From: an uncultured Desulfobacterales bacterium
GTDB lineage: Bacteria > Desulfobacterota > Desulfobaccia > Desulfobaccales > 0-14-0-80-60-11
Length of the DNA: 64,000 nt
Direction: 5' to 3'
Assembly: GCA_964618815.1 (NCBI GenBank)
Contig: CAZUBT010000006.1
Span: forward strand, 739-64,738
The stretch's first letter is position 1. Each line of letters begins with the position of its first letter. A program made the position numbers and the translations under genes. Shown here in pieces: positions 3,656-57,743 of the stretch. Under the pieces are notes generated by a model. It was not told the DNA's origin and did no database searches. It worked only from the letters and a program-made list of their open reading frames with translations.

Positions 3656-4821
3656 CAGATAGTGGGCCTCTGGGCCGCAATGACCACCGCGTACTGATGG
3701 GGCCCCAGGACCAGGTGGTTCGGCGGATTGATCTGGCACTCCACCTTGGCCCGGCCGAAGAGATGGGTCATTTTGGTCTCCGCGAATTTGCGCCGGATAA
3801 ACTCATCAATGGCCGAGGGCTGGTCGGATAACAGATCATCCATGCTCAACACCCGGCCCTCAGTATATAAGGCCACCAGTATGGCTTGATAGCCCTCCTG
3901 CAGATAAGCCGCCAGCTCCCGCACCGTGCGTCCCTGAAAGCGGGCCGGGACCTCCACGGCCCAAAGGTTCTGGAGTTCTCCGGTCAACAGGGTGGTGAGC
4001 ACCTTAAACAGCCCGGGAGAGGCAATGGCCCCAGCCATGATGGAGCTGTCATACTGGCCCCGGATAATCACCTCTTCCACCCCGGCCCGCTCCAAATAGG
4101 CGCGATTTTCCTGGCGCAGGAGTTCCGCCAGGATCCGGATCTTGGAATTAAGGGCCTTGAGAGTGAGAGCGGTGAACAAGGTGCGCTGATCCACCTGGGC
4201 CGCGCCTTCTCCCGTTTGGCGCTCCGCCAGGATGATGGCCTTGAAGGCTCCCTTAACATTGGCTTTCTGCAGGGTCTCTTCCCGGGAGTAGTCCCCCCAA
4301 AGGTAAAAGGTTTCGTGCTTCGAATATTTTTCTTTCAGGGCCTCCATCTGTTCCGGCGGCATTTTATTCACCAGGGCCACCGGCACCTCCTCAGGCAGAC
4401 GCTTGAACAGGTGGTCCAGGAGGATCTCCGCGTCCTCATGCCAGCCCAGGATCAGAATGTGCTGCGTTGTTTGAATGGGTTCCAAGCCCCTCTCCCGGCG
4501 AAACTTGCGTTCCACGAACACCGAGGCAACGGTGGCGGTGAGCAAAGACAGGCTCAAGACGCCGCCCAGGATCACCACCGTGCCCACCAGCCGTCCCCAG
4601 AAGGTTACGGGGACCACATCCCCGTACCCCACGGTGGCCAAGGTAACCAGGGCCCACCAGAGCCCCTGTCCGAAACGATTATACCAGGGACCCTGGCCGG
4701 GTTCGGTGAGGGTGAACCCCAAGGCCCCCAGGACAATGAGCAGGACTACCGCCCGGATCAGGATAAAGACCCGTTCCCGGTGTAAGGTCCGGAAAAACGC
4801 GCTAATCGATGCTCGGGCCAC
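3655..4821 (-). CDS. 2-TM potassium channel with cytoplasmic RCK/TrkA-N domain (MthK-like)
   Basis: Selectivity filter TLATVGYGDV between two hydrophobic helices; ILILGW... Rossmann-like RCK domain follows. Confidence 0.85.
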   Translation of the reverse strand: MARASISAFFRTLHRERVFILIRAVVLLIVLGALGFTLTEPGQGPWYNRFGQGLWWALVTLATVGYGDVVPVTFWGRLVGTVVILGGVLSLSLLTATVASVFVERKFRRERGLEPIQTTQHILILGWHEDAEILLDHLFKRLPEEVPVALVNKMPPEQMEALKEKYSKHETFYLWGDYSREETLQKANVKGAFKAIILAERQTGEGAAQVDQRTLFTALTLKALNSKIRILAELLRQENRAYLERAGVEEVIIRGQYDSSIMAGAIASPGLFKVLTTLLTGELQNLWAVEVPARFQGRTVRELAAYLQEGYQAILVALYTEGRVLSMDDLLSDQPSAIDEFIRRKFAETKMTHLFGRAKVECQINPPNHLVLGPHQYAVVIAAQRPTI

Positions 4822-4881
4822 AAATCTCCGATGCGGCTCGGCAAGCCGCGGTTCTAATTACTCACCGGAAAATCCGGCCCC

Positions 4882-5346
4882 TCAGGTTTCCCTATGGCAA
4901 TCCCGGCACTCGATGGGACCGGCCTTCCGTCCCTGCTGCCGCAACTTCAGGTGACAGCCCTTACATTGCCGATGATAGGCATTCTTGAGATCGGGCCGCC
5001 TCCCCTGCGCCTTGAGGTCGTGGCAGGTGCGGCATTGCTTCACGGGCTGCCCTTGCTTCCAAAGATTGCGCTTGCCCTGCCACTCATGGTGGCACTGCCG
5101 GCAGTCGATGCGCCGGTCCTCGTGCAGCTTATGGCTAAACCACACCGGCGGTTTTTCCCAATGCCTCTGCCAAATGATACGCAGCCAGCCCGCCCCTGGG
5201 GCCTCGGTGGGGAGCCGGGATTGGGCCCCTAACAGGACCAGCGCCCCCAAGGCCAGGGCCACGATTGCCGCCGCCCGGCGTCGGGGAGGCCCCGCCTGGT
5301 CAGTCCTGGTAGTAGGACGCGCAGGACGTGTCCGATTCCCAGACAT
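4882..5346 (-). CDS. tetraheme cytochrome c (class III, c3-like), secreted
   Basis: Four CxxCH motifs (CRQCH, CRTCH, CKGCH, CRDCH) in the last 75 aa; N-terminal hydrophobic signal AAAIVALALGALVLLGA; the only in-frame ATG gives a 47-nt overlap with queD. Confidence 0.8.
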   Translation of the reverse strand: MSGNRTRPARPTTRTDQAGPPRRRAAAIVALALGALVLLGAQSRLPTEAPGAGWLRIIWQRHWEKPPVWFSHKLHEDRRIDCRQCHHEWQGKRNLWKQGQPVKQCRTCHDLKAQGRRPDLKNAYHRQCKGCHLKLRQQGRKAGPIECRDCHRET

Positions 5347-5671
5347 TGACCCGGCTGACCTGGGCGCCGCTACGGTTCAAGACGGCTCCCAGGCGTTCAA
5401 AGAGATAACGAGCCAGGTTCTCCGAAGAAGGATTCAGCTCCTTAAACGCCGGCAATTCGTTTAAATATTTATGGTCAATCTCCTCCAGGACCGCGTTAAC
5501 CCTGGCTTTGACCACCCCAAAGTCCATGAGCAATCCCGCGTCATCCAACTCCCGGCCCTGGAGGAAAACTTCCACCTTCCAGTTGTGACCATGGAGGGCT
5601 TCACATTTGCCGTTAAAATTTTCCAGCCGGTGGGCCGCGGAAAATTGGGTAAGAATTTTCAATTCATACAT
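5300..5671 (-). CDS. queD: 6-carboxy-5,6,7,8-tetrahydropterin synthase
   Basis: 123 aa; FSAAHRL...HGHNW...VWES... typical QueD/PTPS motifs. Confidence 0.9.
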   Translation of the reverse strand: MYELKILTQFSAAHRLENFNGKCEALHGHNWKVEVFLQGRELDDAGLLMDFGVVKARVNAVLEEIDHKYLNELPAFKELNPSSENLARYLFERLGAVLNRSGAQVSRVNVWESDTSCASYYQD

Positions 5672-5674
5672 CTA

Positions 5675-5881
5675 TCAGAGGCCCTCTTTAAGGGTGCGCA
5701 GCCGGGTCTCCATGCGGCCCAGAAGGGTTTTCAGGTCGGTTTGCAGCCCGGCCAGTTCTTTATGGCGTTTGGCGATTATGACCTTCAGTTCCTGTAGCCA
5801 GAATTCCAGGAAGGCCATTTCCCGTTGGCGGAGTTCTTCCTCCACCCGCCGCTTCAACTGCTTTACCAGAACTTCATCCAT
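5675..5881 (-). CDS. small coiled-coil protein, function unknown
   Basis: 68-aa ORF ending 4 nt before the queD start; heptad-like charged/Leu pattern; no recognisable family. Confidence 0.35.
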   Translation of the reverse strand: MDEVLVKQLKRRVEEELRQREMAFLEFWLQELKVIIAKRHKELAGLQTDLKTLLGRMETRLRTLKEGL

Positions 5882-5993
5882 ACAGCCGCCTTAACTTATA
5901 ATTATTACGCTAGAAAGTAATCTATGTCAATCAGTTCTGATGGGGGTCCGCCGACGGGAAGTGGCGGGTTTGGAGTTTAGCAGATTAGCTCTT

Positions 5994-6044
5994 AGGTTCA
6001 AGGTTCAAGGTTCAAAGTTCAAGGTTCGAGGTTTTAGGTTTAAG
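5994..6044. repeat. heptanucleotide tandem array (AGGTTCA/AAGTTCA)
   Basis: Seven consecutive 7-nt units read directly. Confidence 0.9.
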
Positions 6045-6325
6045 AAGCCAGTCAATAAGAAGCAAGACCTACCAGCTAAAAAGCCGAACAGCTAAAAATT
6101 TATCCGTAAATAAACCGAGAACTTTAAAAAATTAGATCAACGCTCCCTTTGTCCTTAATTTTGCGGGCACGGCTTGCCTTGCCCGCCAATCAAGGATTCT
6201 GTTTTGCGCAGGCTAAAGCCTGCGGCTACAGAAAAGGCTCCTCCATTAAAAATAAATAACCCTTTGCAACGCTTTCAAACTCAGTGGAAAGAAGCTGACC
6301 GAACCACCGAAAACTGAAAACCGCT

Positions 6326-6958
6326 TTAAAAATACCGCATGGGCCACCGGTGCCGCCGGGCCAGGCGCTTCAGCCGCCAGGAGGGATTGACCGCCACGGG
6401 ATGGCCGATACTCCGGAACAGGGGTAAATCCTGGTAGTGATCGCCATACGCATAAGACTGTGACAGGTCCAGGTCCAGCGCCTCCGCCAGTTCCAGCAGC
6501 AGGCGCAGTTTGTTTTCTCCCCGGGGATGGAGGCCCATGATCTCCCCGGTGAATCTGCCGTCAGCCTGGCCGATCTCCGTGGCGATGAGCCGGGCTGCGC
6601 CCAATTCCTCCTTTAGCGGCAAGAGTAAAAAGGCCAGGGAGCCGGTCAAGAGGACAATCTCATGCCCCTTAGCCCGGTGCTCCCGGACGCAGGCCGATCC
6701 CGAGGCGCTCACCCGGGGGGCGATGGCAACCGCGTAGCACTCCCGGGCCCAGCGGAGCGTGTCTTCCACCGCCAACCCTTTTAGATAAAACTTATCCCGA
6801 AAACGCTCCCTTGGATGCCGGGCCAGCCGTCCGAAAAAGTTCGCGGCCTGGGGCAGGCTCAGATGCCCCTGGCGCAGCAAATACCAGAAAAACAGGGGTT
6901 CCGTCCGACCCCGCACCAGGGTCTGATCTACATCAAAGATAGCGGCAATGCGACCCAT
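6326..6958 (-). CDS. HAD-IB family hydrolase (SerB-like phosphatase)
   Basis: DxDxT motif (FDVDQTL) at N-terminus; C-terminal GD..D acidic motif (YGDHYQD). Confidence 0.8.
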   Translation of the reverse strand: MGRIAAIFDVDQTLVRGRTEPLFFWYLLRQGHLSLPQAANFFGRLARHPRERFRDKFYLKGLAVEDTLRWARECYAVAIAPRVSASGSACVREHRAKGHEIVLLTGSLAFLLLPLKEELGAARLIATEIGQADGRFTGEIMGLHPRGENKLRLLLELAEALDLDLSQSYAYGDHYQDLPLFRSIGHPVAVNPSWRLKRLARRHRWPMRYF

Positions 6959-10291: not shown

Positions 10292-10450
10292 TGAAGGTAT
10301 AAGGGGCCTGGGGGAAAAAGACCTAAGTTTCGCACCCTTTTTACGCCTAAAAACCAGGGGGGCAATGCAGGTGAGGGGCAACCCGGGAAAAATATTCGGT
10401 GGCACAGGCTTTCCAGCCTGTGCGGTCATCTATCCATTAAATTGCGCCTT

Positions 10451-20620: not shown

Positions 20621-20646
20621 GGTGGCACAGGCTTTCCAGCCTGTGC
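20621..20646. repeat. REP-like hairpin, family A (GGTGGCACAGGCTTTCCAGCCTGTGC)
   Basis: Identical or near-identical copies at 10398-10423, 24183-24208, 44676-44701; variants at 47929-47951, 49263-49286 and inside both MITE copies. Confidence 0.85.
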
Positions 20647-20894
20647 ATGAGCAGGCGAGGGCGCCTACTCCACATTTTTCGGGTCTCACCGACGAAATGC
20701 CCAATGGCCTTTACCATTGCCGATATCCAAGGTTCTATCGGGTGCGAAACTTGATTTCATGAGTTGTCAGTTTTTCGGCCACCGTGTATTAAAGGCGCTT
20801 TGATGCAGGGGCAGGGGAACGCCCCCCCAAGGTTATCTTCCCTGGAGCAGAAAAGAGCTTACAAATTAAACAGATATTTCCTATAATTGCAACT

Positions 20895-22175: not shown

Positions 22176-22184
22176 GGGCTTGGG

Positions 22185-22233
22185 ACAGTTGTTAGTTGTT
22201 AGTTGTTAGTTATTAGTTATTAGTTGTTAGTTT
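22185..22233. repeat. heptanucleotide tandem array (TAGTTGT/TAGTTAT)
   Basis: Seven 7-nt units immediately after the pcnB stop. Confidence 0.9.
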
Positions 22234-22389
22234 GGTGAAAGTGGTCCCGAGATTCTATTACCGGCAACTGAGAAATGACAACTGACCGTTAATAATGCCG
22301 GGCACGGAGGCCGGCCCCACCATAAGATAAAAAATCAGGGATTGTTAGCCTGAGATAGATAAGAATAACTTGTTGACTGACTAAATCCT

Positions 22390-22512
22390 GGTTTCCAAGC
22401 TCCTGTTCCCAAAAGTTCAAAGTTCAAGGTTCAAAGTTCAAAGTTGGGAGTATGCCCACCAGGACTTTTCATAATTTACGGGTGGGCTAAAGGCCCATGA
22501 ACGACTGCCCTG
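22390..22512 (+). repeat. about 125-bp composite element (GGTTTCCAAG..., AAGTTCA array, TTTCATAATTTACGGGTGGGCTAAAGGCCCATG)
   Basis: Copies at 41672-41797 (+) and 52622-52722 (-); partial copy at 22604-22653. Confidence 0.8.
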
Positions 22513-22540
22513 AAAAGTTTCGAGTTTTGAGTTTCGAGTC

Positions 22541-22564
22541 GTGGGGCGGGCCTCCGTGCCCGCC
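22541..22564. repeat. REP-like hairpin, family C (GTGGGGCGGGCCTCCGTGCCCGCC)
   Basis: Copies at 22297-22320, 43241-43264, 50315-50338; inverted doublets at 55460-55538 and 56954-57086. Confidence 0.85.
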
Positions 22565-22756
22565 AAAGTAGGGTGCGTTCCACGCACCATCAGTCCCCCC
22601 CCTTTCATACTTTACGGGTGAGCCAAAGGCTCATGTTCAATTGCTTGGGAACCCCCTTATCTGCCAAGCTCCCGCCTGGCGAAATAATTCATGGTATTTT
22701 AAGAGGTTGAATATACTACTCGGAGCCTTAATTGTGGTGCATCGGTTATGCGCAAC

Positions 22757-22785
22757 GTAGGGGCGGGTTTTAAACCCGCCCCTAC
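22757..22785. repeat. perfect palindrome GTAGGGGCGGGTTTTAAACCCGCCCCTAC
   Basis: 29-nt self-complementary sequence with GTAG/CTAC at both ends. Confidence 0.8.
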
Positions 22786-22903
22786 ATCAACGCAACATAT
22801 TTTATGCTCTGAATAGTAAGTTAAAGCTGTCCCCAAGCAGAGCTTGGGAACGAGAAAGGAAGCAATCTACCGTCTGACCTATCTTAGGATAACACTCTCA
22901 CTT

Positions 22904-24142
22904 TTATTTTTCCAAAATCACCCGCTTAAACCGCCGCTTGCCCACTTTCAGCAGATAAGTAGCCCCCGCGGCCAATTCCAGATTGACGTCCGTGACCTTT
23001 TCCCCATCCACCTGCACGCCGCCCTGGGTAATGAGGCGCCGGGCCTCCGAGGTGCCGGGAGTCAGACCCGCGTCCGCCAGCACCCGGGCGATCCACTGCT
23101 TAGGCTCCTGGAGTTTAAGGGTAACTTCTTCGATTTCCTCCGGCAGGGCGTGGTCCCGGAAGATGCGGGCGAACTCCTCGGCCGCATGGTCCCCCGCGGC
23201 CCGGCCATGGTAGCGACCCACCAGTTCCACTGCTAAATCCTCTTTCACCTGGCGGGGGTGTTTTCTCCCTTGGGCTAAATCCTCTTTGAGCCGGGCCAGG
23301 TCGGCGGGGGTAATGTCCGTGAGGAGCTCAAAAAACCGCAGCATCAGGGGGTCCGAGACGCTCATGATTTTTCCGAACATCTCCTGGGGGGGCTCGTCGA
23401 TGCCCACGTAATTGCCCAGGGATTTGCTCATTTTCTGGACCCCGTCCAACCCCTCCAGGAGCGGCACGGTAATGACCACCTGAGGCTCCAGGCCGTACCC
23501 CCGCTGGATTTCCCGGCCCACCAGGAGATTGAACTTCTGGTCCGTGCCTCCCAATTCCACGTCCGCCTTCAACGCCACAGAATCGTATGCCTGGATCAGG
23601 GGGTAAAGAAACTCATGGATGGCGATGGGCGTCTGGGCGGTGTAGCGCTTGTGAAAGTCGTCCCGCTCCAACATGCGGGCCACGGTGTGCCGGGCCGCCA
23701 GACGGATGAGGTCCTGGGCCTTCATGGCCTTCATCCAGCGGCTGTTGAAGTCGATGACGGTCTTCTCCGGGTCCAGGATCTTGAAGATCTGGCGCTGATA
23801 GGTGGCCGCGTTGGCGGTCACTTCCTCCTCCGTCAGGGGCGGGCGGGTTTCGTTTTTGCCCGAGGGGTCGCCGATGAGGCCGGTGAAATCGCCGATGAGA
23901 AAGATCACCTGGTGGCCCAGGTCCTGAAAGTGCTTGAGCTTCTGGATGAGCACCGTGTGCCCCAGGTGCAAATCCGGCGCGGTGGGATCAAACCCGGCCT
24001 TGACCCGCAGGGGCTTCCCCGTGGCTAGGGCCCGTTCCAGGCGCTCTTTAAGTTCCTCTTCCCGGATAATCTCCTGACAGCCCTGCCGGATGAGGGCCAG
24101 TTGTTCCGCTACGGGTTTCACGTTAATGTTCACTCCAATCAT
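22904..24142 (-). CDS. tyrS: tyrosine--tRNA ligase (with C-terminal S4 domain)
   Basis: HLGH and KMSKS class I motifs; 412 aa. Confidence 0.95.
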
Positions 24143-24349
24143 ATTTTCTTCACCATCTCTTGCCCCGAAAAGTTAAAAAAATGGTGGCACAGGCTTTCCA
24201 GCCTGTGCCGGAGCGCGGCACGCGCCTTAAAATAATGGTGCGTAGAACGCACAAACAGGCAAGAAGCCCCGATGGTATTACCGCTCAAAGGATCCAGCCT
24301 CTCTACTCGGGAAAATTATTATATGTGCGTCCTACGTACCATAATAAAT

Positions 24350-25201
24350 TTATGACTCTATAGATCTTATCGCTGTAATTCTTGTATATAACACTTTGTT
24401 ATCATCTGAAAGTGTAACAGGGTTACCGGATGGTTCATGTTTGTATGCTATTTCCTTTATTTCAAAAATGTTACAACGAAAACATTTAGCCTTATCAGGA
24501 TAAAAAAGACATATATTGTGGCCATCTTTACAAAGTGAACTTTTATAAGCAATCCCTTCATAACCAATTGTTTTTAATTTCTCGGATAGATATTGTGTTG
24601 GCAAATATTTTAAACTATAATCATATGGTGATATTGGTCGTGAAAACGCTGAATTTATATCACCCCAAATTAATTCCTCTTTTTGAGCATCTGAATAGGT
24701 TATAGGGCGCATTTCCATGTTATCAAAGTAAAGTTCATTCTTAGAATAGATTTTTGGCTCATCAGTAGATGTATCAACAATTTTTATGTCTTCACTGGTT
24801 TTAAAATGTCCTATAGTAATCTCTGATTTAATCCATGGCCTTACTTCTGCAATTGCTGTATCCTTATTTGTAGAAAGGTATAAATATGGAATACCTTTTG
24901 GGTTTAAGCGCCCTTCTATAGCTTTATCTTTTGAAGGAGGTCCCATATCAAGAGGAGATATAGGACAAGGCTCTTCAGCTCCATCATCGAAGGTTATCCA
25001 GTCTGAACCTATTCTTGCACGAACTAAAGTTGTGCCCTTTGGTAGAATCATAGTTCTTTTGTGTGATGTCTCCACAACTGTTTGGATAAAATTCTCCCAA
25101 TATTCAGAAAGGATAAATCGATTAATTTCGCTTAAATATTTCGCAAATTTCTGCCAATCCTCTGGATCAATGAATTGTATATTTCTATTATTCGGTTTCA
25201 T
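24350..25201 (-). CDS. RES-domain protein (NAD+-targeting toxin fold), extended form
   Basis: LVRARIG, GRLNPKGIPYLYLS..AIAEV and YLPTQYLS...GYEGIAYKSS...GHNICLF reproduce the Arg/Glu/Ser RES layout; start set to the ATG at 25201, 6 nt after GGAGGA; about 28-30% GC. Confidence 0.8.
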   Translation of the reverse strand: MKPNNRNIQFIDPEDWQKFAKYLSEINRFILSEYWENFIQTVVETSHKRTMILPKGTTLVRARIGSDWITFDDGAEEPCPISPLDMGPPSKDKAIEGRLNPKGIPYLYLSTNKDTAIAEVRPWIKSEITIGHFKTSEDIKIVDTSTDEPKIYSKNELYFDNMEMRPITYSDAQKEELIWGDINSAFSRPISPYDYSLKYLPTQYLSEKLKTIGYEGIAYKSSLCKDGHNICLFYPDKAKCFRCNIFEIKEIAYKHEPSGNPVTLSDDNKVLYTRITAIRSIES

Positions 25202-25287
25202 AACCGATCCTCCCATGGTTTATCGGCAGTGGACACAAATCGGGGGCGGCAACACTCGGGCCGGTCCGCTTCTTGCCGCTTCTTATC

Positions 25288-25536
25288 TCACCTCCTTTTC
25301 GATTTCCCGTCTTTGTAACCTTGTTCATAACCTTGTTTGTAAGTTTTATCTAGCCAGTTAAATATCTTGATAAGAGCCAGCAAGGCCAGGAACGCGACTA
25401 CGATCAAGACGATGACGAACACCCAATCTTGTCTAGTCCAATTCGGGAGTGCCCACACTAGGAACAAAAGGAACAAAATGGCAAAAACCCAGCAGACGAT
25501 CTTTTCTGCCAATTTATTCGCTTCAAACTGATCCAT
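25288..25536 (-). CDS. 82-aa two-TM membrane protein with basic C-terminal tail, unknown family
   Basis: ATG at 25536 directly preceded by GAGGCGGAGG; two hydrophobic helices (IVCWVFAILFLLFLVWAL, WVFVIVLIVVAFLALLALI); same strand and same low GC as the RES gene 86 nt downstream. Confidence 0.6.
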   Translation of the reverse strand: MDQFEANKLAEKIVCWVFAILFLLFLVWALPNWTRQDWVFVIVLIVVAFLALLALIKIFNWLDKTYKQGYEQGYKDGKSKRR

Positions 25537-25730
25537 CCTCCGCCTCTTTTCCCTGAGATATGTTCGCTCGTTCCCAAGTTGCACTTGGGGACGAAAATTT
25601 TGTCCAGGTTTAATTTGGCGGGAGAGGCGTTCCCAACCGCAGCTTTCAGTTAGTGGTAGGCCGTGCCACCCTACATTTTATTTGTGTCTTTGCGCTTTTG
25701 CGTGAGACCTATCTTTTCGGATCAAAAACC

Positions 25731-26774
25731 TTATGTCATCACCCGAATCCGCCCGGCCCCGGTGCTCGTAACCTCGCCGATGACCGCGGCTTCGGTGAGG
25801 CCCCGCTCCATCAAGCGATGCATCAGGGTCTCGCCATATTGCGGCGCCACCGCAATGAACAAACCCCCAGAGGTCTGGGCGTCGCTCATCAGGTCCAGGT
25901 CCACTGGCGCGACTTGGGGGTCAATGACCAGGTGTTTCTCGCAGAACCGCCGGTTGGCGTGGGTGCCCGCGGGGACCAGGCCCATGGCGGCGTATTCCCT
26001 GGCCCAGGGAAGCACCGGCACCCGGCCGGCATAGATGGTCAATTCCGCCTTACTTGCCAGGGCCATTTCCAGGCCGTGGCCCAACAACCCGAAGCCGGTG
26101 ATGTCCGTCACCGCGTGCACCTCCAGGCCCTCCAGGGCTTCCGCGGCGGCCCGGTTGAGGGCGCTCATGACCCGGACGGCGGCGGCCTCGGCTTCCGGGG
26201 AGGCCAGGCGGCCCTTCAAGGCGGTGGCGATGATGCCGGTGCCCAGGGGCTTGGTGAGAATCAGCACATCCCCCACCCGGGCCCCCCCCTTGGTAAAAAT
26301 GCGCTCCGGATGCACCAGCCCCGTCACCGCCATCCCGTATTTCAGTTCCGGATCCTCAACGCTGTGGCCTCCCACCAACAGGGCCCCGGCTTCATGGAGC
26401 TTATCCAGCCCCCCCCGGAGGATGGCCTTGAGGACCTCGGCAGGGGTGGTCTTCAAAGGAAAGCAGACGATATTCAGGGCCGTGAGGGGCCGGCCCCCCA
26501 TGGCATAGACGTCGCTCAAGGCGTTGGCCGCGGCGATCTGCCCGAACTGGTATGGATCATTGACCACGGGGGTAAAAAAGTCCACCGTCTGAATCAGGGC
26601 CACATCCGGGGAAAGACGAAACACCCCGGCGTCATCCGCAGCCTCCAGACCCACCAGCAGATCTGGATGGGTCTGAAAGGGCAGACTCTTTAAGACTTCC
26701 TCCAGGACCCCCGGAGGTATCTTGGAAGCTCAGCCCGCGGCCCGGACTTGCTCTACCAAGGGGATGGTGGTCAT
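25731..26774 (-). CDS. selD: selenide, water dikinase (selenophosphate synthetase), selenocysteine-containing
   Basis: ORF track starts at 26654, but the frame continues upstream through TGA (26730-26732) to ATG at 26774, giving MTTIPLVEQVRAAGUASKIPPGVLEEVL; U aligns with the catalytic Cys/Sec of the SelD GxG(C/U)xxK loop. Confidence 0.9.
26695..26729 (-). promoter_or_regulatory. candidate SECIS hairpin downstream of the selD UGA
   Basis: 12 nt after UGA: CCUCC-GGGGGUCCU-GGAGG (5-bp stem, loop containing GGUC); short stem, so tentative. Confidence 0.35.
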
Positions 26775-39803: not shown

Positions 39804-39928
39804 GGGTTCAAAGTTCAAAGTTCAAGGTTCAAGGTTGAAAATCTTGAACCTTGAACCGTTTAAAACCCAAGTTAAAAGTTGAGTTGTTGAACTCTTAGCT
39901 TTGAACTTTGAACCTTGAACCTTGAACT
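39804..39928. repeat. GGTTCAA/TTGAACC heptamer arrays filling the dapB-dapA spacer
   Basis: 39804-39857 (self-complementary) and 39886-39928 abutting the dapA stop codon. Confidence 0.9.
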
Positions 39929-41651: not shown

Positions 41652-41903
41652 CGAGAGAATACCTTTTAACTGGTTTCCAAGTTCCTGCCTTGAAAAGTTC
41701 AAAGTTCAAGGTTCAAAGTTCAAAGTTAGGAGTATGTCCATCAGGACATTTCATAATTTACGGGTGAGCTGAAGACTTATGGTCAACTGCTTGGGAACGC
41801 CATTTTTTGTCCAAGCTCCGCTCGGGCAGCTTAATGATTCAATAAATTTAATCGGTTAATAAATATTGACAAAGCGGGAGCTTGGGAACCGGATTAAACC
41901 ATC

Positions 41904-44628: not shown

Positions 44629-44732
44629 ACTCGAAAAATCCCTGTTTATCCGTTTTGCCACGATTGTCCTTATGGGGTGGCACAGGCTTTCCAGCCTGTG
44701 CATTAGACGCTGGTGAGATTGCCCCTTCCGCA

Positions 44733-47885: not shown

Positions 47886-47977
47886 GATGAGTCCTTTGTC
47901 CCTATATGGGGGTGGGGAGGGGCGGAGACACAGGCTGAAAGCCTGTGCCACTATCTCCTAACCCCGGACCCCTCCCC

Positions 47978-50234: not shown

Positions 50235-50378
50235 AAGTTCAAAGTTCAAAGTTCAAGGTTCAAAGTTCAAGGTTTAAGATTTTAGATTTTAGCCTATTCC
50301 AGTAAGCAAGTGTTGGCGGGCGCGGAGGCCCGCCCCACCGATTTTTAACAGAAAACAGAAAACCGAAAACAGAAAACT
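50235..50378. repeat. argD-argF spacer: AAGTTCA/AGGTTCA array, family C REP, CAGAAAA/CCGAAAA array
   Basis: 50235-50291, 50315-50338 and 50347-50378 read directly. Confidence 0.9.
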
Positions 50379-51592: not shown

Positions 51593-51672
51593 CAGTTCAA
51601 GGTTCAAGGTTCAAAGTTCAAAGTTGAAAACTAACAACCCCAAACCCCAAACCTTGAACTTTGAACCTTGAA

Positions 51673-51674
<2 letters not shown>
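51593..51674. repeat. argB-argD spacer: inverted GGTTCAA arrays
   Basis: CAGTTCAAGGTTCAAGGTTCAAAGTTCAAAGTTGA ... ACCTTGAACTTTGAACCTTGAACT. Confidence 0.9.
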
Positions 51675-52788
<1,114 letters not shown>

Positions 52789-55459: not shown

Positions 55460-55538
55460 GTGGGGCGGGCCTCCGTGCCCGCCTAAAGTAACGCTCATCG
55501 GCGAGGCTGGTTTAGGCGGGCGCGGAGGCCCGCCCCAC
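55460..55538. repeat. REPIN-like doublet, family C
   Basis: GTGGGGCGGGCCTCCGTGCCCGCC ... GGCGGGCGCGGAGGCCCGCCCCAC, 31-nt spacer. Confidence 0.85.
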
Positions 55539-55553
55539 CGATGTAATATCAAG

Positions 55554-55750
55554 TTGAGACCTCTGCGAAAAGGGCTTGAGCGATGACAAATCAGCTTCAA
55601 AGGAAAAGAAACTAGTGGCACAGGCTTCCAGCCTGTGGGTAACTCTTTGGTAAAACAAGGTTTTTTGCACAGGCTGGAAGCCTGTGCCACCAGATTTTCC
55701 CCCAGGATTTAGTTCCCCTGTGTACCGGCTGATTTTCGCAGAGGTCTCAA
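55554..55750 (+). mobile_element. 197-bp MITE-like element, copy 1 (18-bp perfect TIR TTGAGACCTCTGCGAAAA)
   Basis: Terminal inverted repeats read directly; an internal inverted pair of family A hairpins; no coding capacity. Confidence 0.8.
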
Positions 55751-55855
55751 GTTCTGTTTTAGATGCAACCAACTCTATGGCTAACTTATTGATAATCCAA
55801 TTTCTTTTAACCGAAAACTGAGAACCGAAAACCGAAAACGGTATCAGACGCTGCG

Positions 55856-56758
55856 CTACTCCTTGCTCCTCGGATGCGCCTTATCGTATTCCTCCATCAA
55901 GTAATCCAGGTTCAGGTGCAGGTATCTCTGGGTACTGGAAATGGAGGCGTGGCCTAACAATTCCTGCACCGTCCTTAAATCCGCCTTACCTTCCAAGAGG
56001 TGCGTGGCGAAGCTGTGGCGCAGGCCGTGGGGCGTCAGGGCTTGGGAGAGCTCCGCGGCCCTGGCCCGGCGGCCCACCACCCGGGCCACCCCCCGGGAAC
56101 TGAGGCGGCCGCCCCTTAAATTGACAAACAGGGCGGTTTCCTCGGTGCGGCCCTTTTCCTGCAAAAGCCGGCTTCTCAAAGGGAGATACGCGGTTAGAGC
56201 CTGTTGCGCGGCCTCTCCCAGAAAGGCCAGCCGTTCTTTACTGCCTTTGCCCCACACCCGGACCACCCCGGCGTTCAGGTCCAGATCCTTTAGGCTGAGG
56301 CCGGCCAGTTCCGACAGGCGCAGGCCTCCGGCGTAAAATACCTCCAGGATGGCCCGATCCCGCCGGGCGCCCGGATCATCGCCCTTAGTGTGCCCCAGGA
56401 GATGAAACACCTCGTCTACGGTCAAAAAGTGGGGCAGGGGCTTTTCCAGCTTGGGGCTGGGGGCCAGCTTGGCCGGGTTATGGGCCATAATCCCCAGTCG
56501 CTGCAAATATTTAAAGAAGGACCGCAGGGCCGAGAGCTTCCGGGCCACCGTGGTCTTCCGGCGTCCTTTCAGGGACAGGGCCAGGAAGGCCCGCAAGTCC
56601 TTATAGGTCGCCTCCGATAGGGAACTCCTCGGCCCCTGGGCCCAAAATTCCAGGAACTGGCTGAGGTCCAGGCGGTAATTTCTCAGGGTATGGGGCGACA
56701 TCTGCCGCTCCACCCGGAGATACCGCAGGAAATCCTCGAGATAACCCCATCCGTCCAT
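55856..56758 (-). CDS. xerC: site-specific tyrosine recombinase XerC/XerD family
   Basis: R...HGLRHSFATHLL...LGH.S.STTQ.Y catalytic signature; conserved xerC-hslVU neighbourhood. Confidence 0.9.
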   Translation of the reverse strand: MDGWGYLEDFLRYLRVERQMSPHTLRNYRLDLSQFLEFWAQGPRSSLSEATYKDLRAFLALSLKGRRKTTVARKLSALRSFFKYLQRLGIMAHNPAKLAPSPKLEKPLPHFLTVDEVFHLLGHTKGDDPGARRDRAILEVFYAGGLRLSELAGLSLKDLDLNAGVVRVWGKGSKERLAFLGEAAQQALTAYLPLRSRLLQEKGRTEETALFVNLRGGRLSSRGVARVVGRRARAAELSQALTPHGLRHSFATHLLEGKADLRTVQELLGHASISSTQRYLHLNLDYLMEEYDKAHPRSKE

Positions 56759-56953
56759 GGCGCCTGACGGGCGACCCTCAGCGGGCTGCCGAGCTTATTC
56801 TACCCCCTTGAAATTAATGAATATTATCATCAATTCCAAACAATGCCAAAACATTATCGGCAGAAACCGGGGCCAAACGCTAAAATCCCGGGGGCCGTTT
56901 AAGGAAGGAGCCATAAGATTGGCCAAGAGGGTCGCGGCCGGATAGGAAAAAAC

Positions 56954-57086
56954 GTGGGGCGGGCCTCCGTGCCCGCCGGGTAAAGATCAACCGCGGATGC
57001 ACGCAGATTAACGCAGATTAAATTGCACTCAGCCGCGTTCGTCTGCGGTGGATCTCCATGGAGGCGGGCACGGAGGCTCGCCCCAC
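56954..57086. repeat. wide inverted pair of family C hairpins enclosing a GCAGATT-type array
   Basis: GTGGGGCGGGCCTCCGTGCCCGCC at 56954-56977, complement at 57063-57086. Confidence 0.8.
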
Positions 57087-57178
57087 GATCAAAAAGTCCG
57101 AGCTCGTTGGCGCAGGCTAAAGCCTGCGGCTACAGATAATATCTGCGCTTTTGGCTGAAAGCTGATGGCTGACAGCTC

Positions 57179-57547: not shown

Positions 57548-57743
57548 TGAGACCTCTGCGAAAATGGTTTGAGCGATGACAAATCAGCTTCAAAGGAAAA
57601 GAACCTAGTGGCACAGGCTTCCAGCCTGTGAATAACTCTATGGTAAATCAAGGTTTATTGCACAGGCTGGAAGCCTTTGCCACCAGATTTTTCCTCTGGA
57701 TTTTGTTTCCCTGTGTACCGGCTGATTTTCGCAGAGGTCTCAA
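57548..57743 (+). mobile_element. 196-bp MITE-like element, copy 2 (17-bp TIR)
   Basis: Roughly 90% identical by eye to 55554-55750, same orientation. Confidence 0.8.

Follow-up and report, generated by a model that had tools for sequence, protein, structure and literature searches.

Locus Organization and Base Composition

Two small genes lie on the minus strand between selD and tyrS in the window, the 64-kb stretch of DNA analyzed here. The features of this islet and its flanks, in order of coordinate, are:

22904-24142: tyrS, flanking the islet on the RES side
24154-25562: DNA that related genomes lack, selD and tyrS being immediate neighbors there; a composite insertion (comparison with L025)
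24186-24209, minus strand: hairpin resembling an intrinsic terminator, GGCACAGGCTGGAAAGCCTGTGCC with a T-run after it, on the downstream side of the RES gene (terminator scan)
24350-25201, minus strand: RES ORF, encoding a short stand-alone RES-domain protein of 283 aa; the actual AT-rich foreign gene (Pfam, homologues, AF2 model)
25202-25212, minus strand: leader of the RES gene with a GGAGG Shine-Dalgarno sequence; upstream edge of the DNA in common with the closest relative (blastn)
25213-25287, minus strand: GC-rich spacer that separates the RES unit from the small gene and is absent from RES relatives (composition, blastn limits)
25288-25536, minus strand: small ORF, encoding an 82-aa protein with two TM segments and a basic, Tyr-rich tail; a lineage-restricted neighbor (ORF list)
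25563-25645: dispersed host repeat of about 80 nt in the selD-proximal intergenic DNA, on the ancestral side of the insertion (blastn)
25731-26654: selD, flanking the islet on the small-gene side

The two ORFs are 86 nt apart and, as the first-pass annotation of this DNA had it, each is preceded by a Shine-Dalgarno sequence (AAGAGG, 6 nt 5' of the ATG of the small ORF; GGAGG, 7 nt 5' of the RES ATG). The same annotation described an AT-rich islet of two genes. A trough in GC content is certainly present, with a minimum of 0.31 in 300-nt windows compared to 0.60-0.69 in the flanks. By piece, GC content is 0.332 in the RES gene, 0.426 in the small ORF, 0.593 in the 86-nt spacer (25202-25287) and 0.61-0.66 in tyrS and selD; thus, the truly AT-rich part is the RES gene only. 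Values of GC3 are 0.218 for the RES gene, 0.542 for the small gene and 0.80-0.82 for the host.

The Larger Gene Encodes a RES-Domain Protein

The RES assignment, initially made by eye, was confirmed by a Pfam profile search, in which the 283-aa protein matched PF08808 with 52 bits (E 1.1e-13; cutoff 23.2); 27/27 aligned homologues also match this profile. In total, 249 full-length homologues were recovered. All motifs originally quoted (LVRARIG, GRLNPKG..YLYLS..AIAEV and YLPTQYL...GYEGIAYKSS...GHNICLF) are found in the translation. Residues R61, R98, N100, E119, Y219 and S221 are invariant across the 27 aligned sequences, and the conserved Arg/Glu/Ser catalytic set, made up of R98 in GRLN, E119 in AIAEV and S221 in YKSS, is intact. 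The family profile had no match to PDB sequences at E<=1, and fold comparison alone was informative: the best Foldseek matches of the AF2 model (pLDDT 87.9) in the PDB are NatT, ParT and the Pseudomonas putida RES toxin (probability 0.97-1.0), with tankyrase and PARP-like folds also among the matches. Profile, fold and active-site residues together show that this is a genuine RES-domain protein. Its gene is under purifying selection (dN/dS 0.13-0.26).

Two additions to the RES core had been pointed out. The N-terminal one, originally put at about 55 residues, comprises about 52 residues that are conserved across the family. The other, a C-terminal Cys/His cluster, is present here but does not characterize the family: C224 is retained in 2/27 sequences, H228 in 8/27, C231 in 6/27, C240 in 17/27 and C243 in 19/27. 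A Zn-binding role for these residues was rejected on the basis of this poor conservation.

The Small Membrane Protein Is Not a Conserved Partner

The 82-aa protein has two hydrophobic segments in Kyte-Doolittle windows (at about residues 8-35 and 33-64), in line with its initial description, and it matches no family of Pfam, NCBIfam, PADLOC or PHROGs at a score over the threshold. With neither an HTH nor a DUF2384 match in this upstream gene product, the reported absence of an Xre/DUF2384 antitoxin at the locus stands. Only three homologues of the small protein were found among 5.8 billion clusters (66-81% identity), and all three precede genes of 163-176 aa that have no Pfam match and are not RES genes. 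Contigs of JGI 3300075153 are the source of these homologues and of P0007.

The first-pass annotation placed the membrane protein in the antitoxin slot of a two-gene module, in which it would be either a membrane-anchored antitoxin or the component that senses membrane stress in abortive infection. The two genes share a strand, the gap between them is short, each has its own Shine-Dalgarno sequence and the terminator scan found no terminator-like site on the minus strand between them; local co-expression is therefore possible. Furthermore, both genes are within DNA that relatives lack, and there is no Xre antitoxin at the locus. However, the co-occurrence expected of partners is absent. A tblastn survey of 173 RES loci returned no real match to the small gene; the sole metagenome-scan match, in L093, falls on a TM segment in an ABC permease, which makes it spurious. 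Likewise, the small gene is missing from all of the approximately 90 RES-homologue loci whose neighborhoods were surveyed, and its own three homologues lead into other genes. Within the same metagenome sample, a 70%-identical RES gene occurs by itself, flanked by a radical-SAM gene and uvrB, so that the small gene and RES each occur apart there, with different neighbors.

The limits of the shared DNA also count against a module. The blastn match to L001 and L002 (89.3% over 860 nt) covers only positions 25212-24353 of the window, that is, the RES ORF plus 11 nt of leader, and the block in common with the 86%-identical relative leaves out the small gene and the spacer. The same is true of composition, given a GC3 of 0.54 in the small gene versus 0.22 in the RES gene. 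Although same-strand membrane proteins are encoded upstream of RES in about 10 of approximately 64 non-operonic RES loci, this is roughly the background rate, and these proteins are mutually unrelated. Consequently, we consider a two-gene module very unlikely. The small gene is an unrelated neighbor of the RES gene rather than a conserved partner; it is an accessory gene in its own right, restricted to this lineage. Read-through transcription from it may reach RES; that its product was locally co-opted as a RES modulator in this lineage is much less likely. Of the earlier proposal of a defense or abortive-infection system, a role for the RES protein remains plausible, but the membrane protein as its co-component does not.

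An ORF of 191 aa on the plus strand (24786-25361), antisense to the islet genes, was considered as a hidden antitoxin gene and rejected, since it crosses the unit boundary and the length of the open frame varies: 191 aa in the window, 150 aa in L001, 134 aa in L175 and only 58-87 aa in L174, L011, L009 and L003.

The selD-tyrS Spacer Is an Insertion Hotspot

Across 27 relatives, selD is followed by tyrS with gaps of mostly 34-300 nt and without either islet gene. In L025, the counterparts of window positions 25563 and 24153 are adjacent. Other AT-rich single genes occupy the same site in two genomes, namely an HSDR_N/D5-like gene in L040 (GC 0.39) and a DUF4268 gene in L041 (GC 0.40). In this lineage, the selD-tyrS site is a hotspot where single accessory genes of high AT content have been taken up repeatedly.

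The spacer is also rich in repeats. In blastn, the repeat at 25563-25645 matched the DNA between selD and tyrS in L025 and L018; matches at other positions came from L013, L018 and L040. The hairpin GGCACAGGCTGGAAAGCCTGTGCC occurs in four copies in the window versus zero expected by chance, and at other sites in related genomes; the copy at 24186-24209 belongs to this set of dispersed host-lineage repeats and was not imported with the RES gene. Downstream of RES there are imperfect palindromes, which are REP-like units of the host.

Several candidate routes of integration were considered and set aside. There was no tRNA, tmRNA or Rfam match in the whole 64-kb window that could mark a tRNA or ncRNA integration site. 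Direct and inverted repeats flanking the islet, sought as possible att sites or TIRs, amounted to short, chance-level matches alone, and the hairpins adjacent to the islet were rejected as mobility ends, being dispersed host repeats. An integron cassette with attC was discarded as well, as R'/R'' core sites were absent by eye.

Distribution and Genomic Context of the Short RES Family

Homologues of the RES protein are distributed across many phyla and form 1,644 clusters at 50% identity (E<=1e-30). Among the best 150 of these 1,644 clusters, almost all proteins are 240-295 aa long, and the match begins at residue 2-10. The neighborhood differs in each independent locus. When 335 neighbors from about 90 loci were clustered, no recurrent partner was detected in the close clade, and these genes, without a recurrent neighbor in about 70 non-redundant close-clade loci, are non-operonic RES genes. 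Among 150 neighboring ORFs no Pfam family was seen more than three times (HTH_3, 3/150), and DUF2384 is not among the 25 most frequent families listed. Some RES loci adjoin restriction-modification (MjaI), HicAB, KAP NTPase or AAA_15/23 genes. The sampled neighbors are mostly housekeeping, miscellaneous or without assignment, and form no clear defense islands. In other genomes the RES gene is usually lower in GC than its flanks (for example, 0.34 vs. 0.58, 0.41 vs. 0.63 and 0.38 vs. 0.60). The RES protein is thus a member of a very large family whose RES proteins are short (approximately 240-295 aa) and solitary.

Carriage by phages was considered and rejected. A search of 2.9 million viral contigs gave just 31 distant matches (26-38% identity), the RES protein has no PHROG match, and its viral fold matches are weak ART-like folds.

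Comparison With RES Toxins and RES Operons

The best structural match is NatT (PDB 8qnl; Foldseek E 5e-5 over 248 aligned columns), which at 250 aa is, like the window protein, longer than a minimal RES protein. The TM-score is 0.41-0.45 and the identity 15%. NatT of Pseudomonas aeruginosa is an NAD+/NADP+ phosphorylase yielding ADPR-1P, and is bound via its “Flap” by the HTH-Xre/DUF2384-type antitoxin NatR encoded upstream (EMBO J 2024, PMC11535050). Unlike NatT, the window protein has no antitoxin gene at its locus. MbcT of MbcTA, ParT of ParST and the P. putida RES toxin share with it the RES fold and the R/E/S catalytic motif. However, these are toxins of about 145-190 aa that are always encoded behind an Xre/DUF2384 antitoxin gene, whereas the window protein has approximately 52 additional N-terminal and 45 additional C-terminal residues and no antitoxin. 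The co-oriented, adjacent Xre/DUF2384 gene that defines a type II Xre-RES system is absent from the locus.

It could be argued that the protein is nonetheless an orphan type II toxin, one that is expressed at a harmless level and whose antitoxin, of the Xre/DUF2384 or another type, has disappeared or is encoded at a distant place in the genome. Its fold is nearest to toxin-antitoxin toxins (NatT, ParT and the P. putida protein), and the locus was read within 64 kb of the genome, so an antitoxin could act in trans. In addition, a convergent HTH_3 gene lies 105 nt downstream of RES in L001, the closest relative, but outside the common DNA block. The toxin model for RES/Xre pairs in NCBIfam (NF049844, Res_ParT_toxin) scores only 14.9 bits against a cutoff of 110. 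Being solitary is the rule over hundreds of loci in many phyla, not an exception of this genome, and the rarity of HTH_3 genes and lack of DUF2384 among the listed neighbor families point in the same direction. An orphan toxin therefore appears quite improbable.

RES proteins also occur in operons with sce7726 (cll-like) and sce7725, related to the gop-beta-cll defense system, an arrangement we identified in 16 distant loci. Their RES proteins are distant members of the same long-form RES family (30-36% identity). They differ in being about 350 aa long and in always following sce7726 and sce7725, with a spacing of 1 or -4 nt. Neither sce7725 nor sce7726 was found in the window or in the close clade.

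Relation to Stand-Alone aRES Proteins

The closest characterized homologues by sequence are the aRES proteins, which are stand-alone, non-operonic antiphage RES proteins validated in Escherichia coli UC5, Klebsiella pneumoniae and Enterobacter chengduensis; on infection, they produce nicotinamide and ADPR-1''-phosphate from NAD+ (Osterman et al., bioRxiv 10.64898/2026.01.28.702374, Jan 2026). BLASTP aligned residues 53-233 of the window protein to aRES 174-353 (E 2e-12), and hhalign extended the match to validated aRES to residues 15-237 and 129-357, respectively (99.5% probability, E 1e-22, 210 columns). Identity to aRES is about 24%. The residues R182, R184 and R215 that were mutated in aRES (bioRxiv 10.64898/2026.01.28.702374) correspond to R61, R63 and R98. 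Like aRES, the window protein is encoded by a single gene without an operonic partner, its family is widespread with a patchy distribution, and the homology includes the RES core, the preceding helix and the following strand.

There are also clear differences. The window protein has 283 aa compared to more than 399 aa in aRES, and lacks aRES residues 1-128, so that the CxxC...CxxC Zn-ribbon is missing along with about 85% of the HEPN/RES-NTD1 domain, PF18870. This domain spans aRES residues 29-147, and the hhalign match begins at 129. PF18870 gave no match in the window protein at E<=1, precomputed annotation of the 120 homologues listed consists of PF08808 only, and weak PF18870 signals in 2/27 homologues (E 0.025 and 0.11) cover only profile positions 108-127 of 131. 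Moreover, a defense-island context is not evident for the short RES loci sampled. The aRES census was restricted to proteins of 300-600 aa with PF18870 detected by hhsearch at a probability above 80% (bioRxiv 10.64898/2026.01.28.702374), and its length filter would account for the short family being missed. Judged from these alignments, the window protein is a homologue of the aRES defense proteins and a short variant of them. The first-pass annotation called the locus an undescribed RES module. It is indeed non-canonical with respect to MbcTA, ParST and NatRT, but the homology to aRES, and the report in January 2026 of stand-alone RES defense without a partner, weaken the word “undescribed.”

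The missing N-terminus raises the question of whether the gene is a decaying remnant, an N-terminally truncated and non-functional aRES. This seems extremely improbable given that 1,644 clusters have the same short architecture with matches starting at residue 2-10, the active-site residues are invariant, dN/dS is about 0.2 and the N-terminal helices are confidently modeled (pLDDT 89-98).

A further alternative is that the protein is neither a toxin nor a defense protein but an enzyme with no need of an inhibitor, either a target-specific, non-lethal ADP-ribosyltransferase or one of NAD(P)+ metabolism. Activities within the RES/ART folds are varied, as illustrated by ParT and by the tankyrase and PARP-like matches; ParT modifies Prs. 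The lack of an antitoxin and the mostly non-defense loci would fit such an enzyme. On the other hand, the nearest characterized homologues in sequence (aRES) and in fold (NatT) are both NAD+ phosphorylases, and a patchy distribution, AT-richness and ORF-sized transfer typify conflict genes, not metabolic genes. On balance, we regard a non-lethal enzyme as unlikely.

Proposed Function and Implications

Overall, the AT-rich core of the islet is probably one horizontally acquired, short, stand-alone RES gene related to aRES, with the small gene not being its partner. The gene at 24350-25201 would have entered the selD-tyrS intergenic DNA of a Desulfobaccales-type genome as a near-bare ORF with its ribosome-binding site. 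We infer that its product, which is a homologue of aRES over the C-terminal two thirds of the latter, is of the NAD+-cleaving type and acts in defense. The protein would be silent in uninfected cells without any antitoxin, and a phage-derived or stress cue would switch it on, leading to cell arrest through NAD+ depletion or, less likely, ADP-ribosylation of a target. With no Zn-ribbon and little of the PF18870 domain left, sensing or auto-inhibition would have to reside in the retained parts; candidates are a helical hairpin ahead of the RES domain (residues approximately 15-49), a 30-residue insert between R63 and R98, and the C-terminal beta-hairpin.

Several observations weigh against an aRES-related defense gene. 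The sampled neighborhoods are mostly non-defense, PADLOC has no model matching the RES protein, and both the PF18870 domain and the 300-600 aa length used to delimit aRES are lacking. In addition, a potentially lethal predicted NADase would have to be silenced without the N-terminal domain of aRES.

More tentatively, the solitary RES proteins of approximately 240-295 aa could constitute a distinct family of single-gene, NAD+-depleting immunity proteins, with neither antitoxin nor NTD1, that the aRES census missed. With no antitoxin and no NTD1 sensor, such proteins would have to rely on a new kind of gating, intramolecular or oligomeric, unless the RES core itself directly recognizes a phage factor.

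For annotation, the locus illustrates that a shared GC trough and adjacency do not count as evidence for a two-gene system. It also shows a bare, ORF-sized, AT-rich conflict gene lodging between housekeeping genes in a repeat-rich intergenic hotspot. Should the short RES proteins prove to be active defense enzymes, the aRES class would grow to include a far larger family of more minimal proteins, which would present a mechanistic puzzle, that of a lethal NAD+ phosphorylase kept silent without an antitoxin or a recognizable sensor domain.

Composition and gene content of the islet

The islet and its flanks comprise the following features, in minus-strand order:

25731-26654, minus strand: selD, upstream flank of the islet
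25563-25645, upstream of the small gene: element of ~80 nt, a dispersed host repeat at the junction
25288-25536, minus strand: small gene, 82-aa ORF with its own good Shine-Dalgarno sequence
86-nt spacer from the small gene to the RES gene: GC 0.593
24350-25201, minus strand: RES gene, 283-aa ORF with its own good Shine-Dalgarno sequence and a Pfam RES match
About 200 nt from the RES gene to tyrS: non-coding DNA
22904-24142, minus strand: tyrS, downstream flank of the islet

GC content falls to a minimum of 0.31 (300-nt windows) against 0.60-0.69 outside. The first-pass annotation, which described two same-strand ORFs with Shine-Dalgarno sequences in a GC trough, one encoding a RES-domain protein, thus rests on a real observation, because ORF coordinates, GC windows, ribosome-binding sequences and the Pfam RES match (52 bits, cutoff 23.2) all bear it out. 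Strong AT-richness is limited to the RES gene (GC 0.332, GC3 0.218); the small gene has a GC of 0.426 and a GC3 of 0.542, and host genes have a GC3 of 0.80-0.82. In the small protein two hydrophobic helices are followed by a basic tail, and searches of Pfam, NCBIfam, PADLOC and PHROGs assign it to no family above threshold. We also noted an antisense ORF of 191 aa (24786-25361, plus strand), unusual for AT-rich DNA, that runs from the 5' half of the RES gene across the spacer into the end of the small gene. Since its frame is not consistently open in homologues, it probably does not represent a gene.

A conserved RES enzyme of a large family

The AF2 model, computed from the family alignment, has high confidence (pLDDT 87.9), also in the N-terminal helices. 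NatT, ParT and the P. putida RES toxin are the closest PDB structures, and PARP and tankyrase catalytic domains come next; that the protein is a non-lethal, target-specific ART, as these latter matches might suggest, we consider unlikely. R61, R98, N100, E119, Y219 and S221 are the same in all 27 aligned sequences, and comparison with six homologues gives a dN/dS of 0.12-0.26 wherever synonymous sites are unsaturated. The gene is therefore functional, and a dead remnant is very unlikely. The Cys/His cluster earlier singled out as a feature of the protein is not conserved among homologues.

Nearly all of the 249 detectable homologues are full-length. An exhaustive HMM search recovered 1,644 clusters (50% identity) at E<=1e-30, and among the best 150 almost all are 240-295 aa long with the match starting at residue 2-10; the short architecture is thus the norm of a large family and no truncation artefact.

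Relationship to aRES proteins and RES toxins

The aRES proteins, found in about 4% of genomes, are stand-alone RES proteins that protect E. coli from phages and convert NAD+ to nicotinamide and ADPR-1''-phosphate; they are defined as 300-600 aa with a RES domain and PF18870 (HEPN/RES-NTD1) (10.64898/2026.01.28.702374, January 2026). That preprint prints "PF00808" for RES; the aRES proteins themselves match PF08808. Compared with the validated sequences of its Table S4, the window protein aligns with aRES-UC5 residues 174-353 (E 2e-12), a stretch containing the arginines mutated by the aRES authors, and profile-profile comparison equates window residues 15-237 with aRES 129-357 (99.5% probability, E 1e-22). 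In aRES, PF18870 spans residues 29-147. In the short family it gives weak matches in two members, at profile positions 108-127 of 131, and precomputed annotation gives it for none of the 120 homologues listed; the short family keeps only the last helix of this domain. The window protein is thus clearly homologous to aRES, but without the Zn-ribbon and the greater part of the N-terminal domain, and the published operational definition does not cover it.

Neither is it a member of the Xre-RES toxin-antitoxin family: an antitoxin is missing from the locus, and with the NCBIfam toxin model the protein scores 14.9 bits, where the cutoff is 110. NatT, the structure most like it, relies on an Xre-type antitoxin that it binds via an N-terminal Flap (PMC11535050); an orphan toxin neutralised in trans, which this likeness could favor, is nonetheless quite improbable. 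The first-pass annotation called the module undescribed. It was right that the RES protein is non-canonical and without an Xre antitoxin at the locus, but stand-alone RES defence proteins have already been described as aRES.

The small membrane protein and the RES gene

The same annotation proposed that the membrane protein is the partner of RES in a two-gene module. Locally, the shared strand, the 86-nt gap and the lack of an intervening terminator are the only points in favor. Five independent lines argue against it: RES neighbours, a wider scan, homologues of the small protein, the limits of the DNA match and composition.

Firstly, the neighbours of RES differ in each readable locus (L-numbers, loci from other genomes; P0007, a metagenome homologue):

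L001, 86% identity: after a PPDK gene; convergent HTH_3 (Xre-type) gene at 4970-5293, 105 nt downstream of RES
L003-L008, 52% identity: RES at 4001-4894; hicA/hicB-like pair and KAP-family NTPase on one side
L009: near a DUF4156 lipoprotein gene
L011: among unknown genes
L175-L177: adjoining an MjaI-type R-M system
P0007, 70% identity: between a radical-SAM gene and uvrB

Beyond the HTH_3 gene, L001 also carries a metallo-beta-lactamase gene (5639-6394) with an anti-Pycsar Apyc1-like Pfam match; both genes lie outside the DNA common to L001 and the window. On the other side of RES in L003-L008 are Zot/DUF2523 (inovirus-type) genes, a transposase fragment and AAA_15/AAA_23/SMC-like genes. This context, in a cluster found on 114 contigs, is of mobile-element and defence type. 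In a sub-branch with 60% identity to the window protein (L011 4999-7532, L012 1582-4115), RES is followed by 438- and 380-aa genes without Pfam match, the first 35 nt downstream by called coordinates or 5 nt by our own ORF call; kept on two independent contigs, this order may be a local three-gene arrangement.

The genome-wide scan covered >583 loci from many phyla. Clustering of 335 flanking ORFs from about 90 loci did not yield any neighbour that recurs in the close clade, and Pfam and PADLOC scans of 150 RES-neighbour ORFs found no family more than 3 times; HTH_3 occurred 3 times, and DUF2384 was absent from the families listed. Among 5.8 billion clusters the small protein, for its part, has no more than 3 homologues, at 66-81% identity, and these come from a single JGI sample. 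None recurs upstream of RES: in 3/3 the next same-strand gene encodes 163-176 aa, with no Pfam match, and a RES homologue in that sample (P0007) stands alone elsewhere. By tblastn, the small protein has no real match in all 173 fetched loci. The DNA match to the closest RES relative (89.3% over 860 nt, window 25212-24353) covers the RES ORF plus 11 nt with its Shine-Dalgarno sequence and leaves out the spacer and small gene. Finally, host, small gene and RES fall into three compositional classes, which speaks for separate histories. With no co-occurrence, separate DNA blocks and different composition, the partnership is not supported, and a membrane-partner module is very unlikely. Overall, the analysis shows that the RES enzyme is solitary and conserved, that its catalytic site is intact and that it arrived as a bare ORF; the locus is probably a single stand-alone aRES-like gene beside an unrelated neighbour.

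The selD-tyrS junction and dispersed repeats

Judged by homologues of selD and tyrS, the host belongs to a Desulfobaccales/Thermodesulfobacteriota lineage. In 27 related genomes selD is directly followed by tyrS, with gaps mostly of 34-300 nt, and neither islet gene occurs in any of them. Compared with L025, the window is longer here by about 1.4 kb (24154-25562). Two relatives carry a different single AT-rich gene at this junction: in L040 (5955-6989, GC 0.39) it encodes a 345-aa HSDR_N and Pox_D5-like protein with a weak PADLOC type IIG REase match, and in L041 (6124-6624, GC 0.40) a DUF4268 protein. The junction thus acts as a hotspot that takes up orphan genes of nuclease-like or conflict type. 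Because of the empty site in relatives, this other cargo and the repeats present, it looks like a small intergenic hotspot gathering orphan accessory genes. At the edges of the islet we found no tRNA, Rfam family, target-site duplication or terminal inverted repeat.

Further copies of the ~80-nt element lie between selD and tyrS in L025 and L018 and, at unrelated positions, in L013, L018 and L040 (75-82% identity); it is a dispersed MITE/REP-like repeat of the host lineage. A terminator-like hairpin, the dispersed palindrome (G/T/C)GCACAGGCTGGAAAGCCTGTGCC, often followed by a T-run, has 4 window copies within 1 mismatch against 0 expected:

10401-10424: hairpin copy
20624-20647: hairpin copy
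24186-24209: hairpin copy at the selD-tyrS junction
44679-44702: hairpin copy

Further related copies lie near 47929-47951, 55615-55692 and 57608-57685, and the hairpin also occurs in related genomes; it is either or both of a REP-like element and a shared intrinsic terminator. Several short repeat families also cluster between the pcnB-like gene and tyrS (22176-22903, GC 0.45-0.51, no convincing ORF) and recur intergenically in the window (e.g., 5996, 39805-39928, 41693-41798, 50235-50338, 51594-51674, 52571-52788 and 55460-57088). This region resembles a BIME-like array of REP elements.

Distant relatives in sce7726-sce7725-RES operons

In 16 Bacteroidota and Bacillota genomes, a distant member of this RES family, ~350 aa long, is encoded by the last gene of a compact three-gene operon (L132, L135, L143, L151, L154, L158, L160, L162, L164, L165, L167-L169 and L171-L173; RES at ~4001-5050 in most). 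The order is sce7726 (~288 aa), sce7725 (~313 aa) and RES, with gaps of 1 or -4 nt. In PADLOC sce7726 matches "cll" of gop-beta-cll (E 4e-20), and sce7725 matches NF033831 (303 bits). The operon looks like a gop-beta-cll-type system with a putative RES effector; we found no description of it in the literature searched.

Possible mechanism and significance

Like aRES and NatT, the RES protein would cleave NAD+ on a trigger, probably by phosphorolysis, and this would lead to growth arrest. Because neither an antitoxin nor the NTD1 domain is available, control would have to lie with the helical hairpin kept ahead of the RES core, with the insert of ~30 residues from R63 to R98 or with the C-terminal beta-hairpin, or else come from oligomerisation or direct recognition of a phage factor. 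If the gene is a stand-alone aRES-like one, we judge the chances for and against a true role in phage defence to be roughly even. The window protein is best filed as a short, NTD1-less form of stand-alone RES proteins, and the large family of short RES proteins, taken together, merits experiments.
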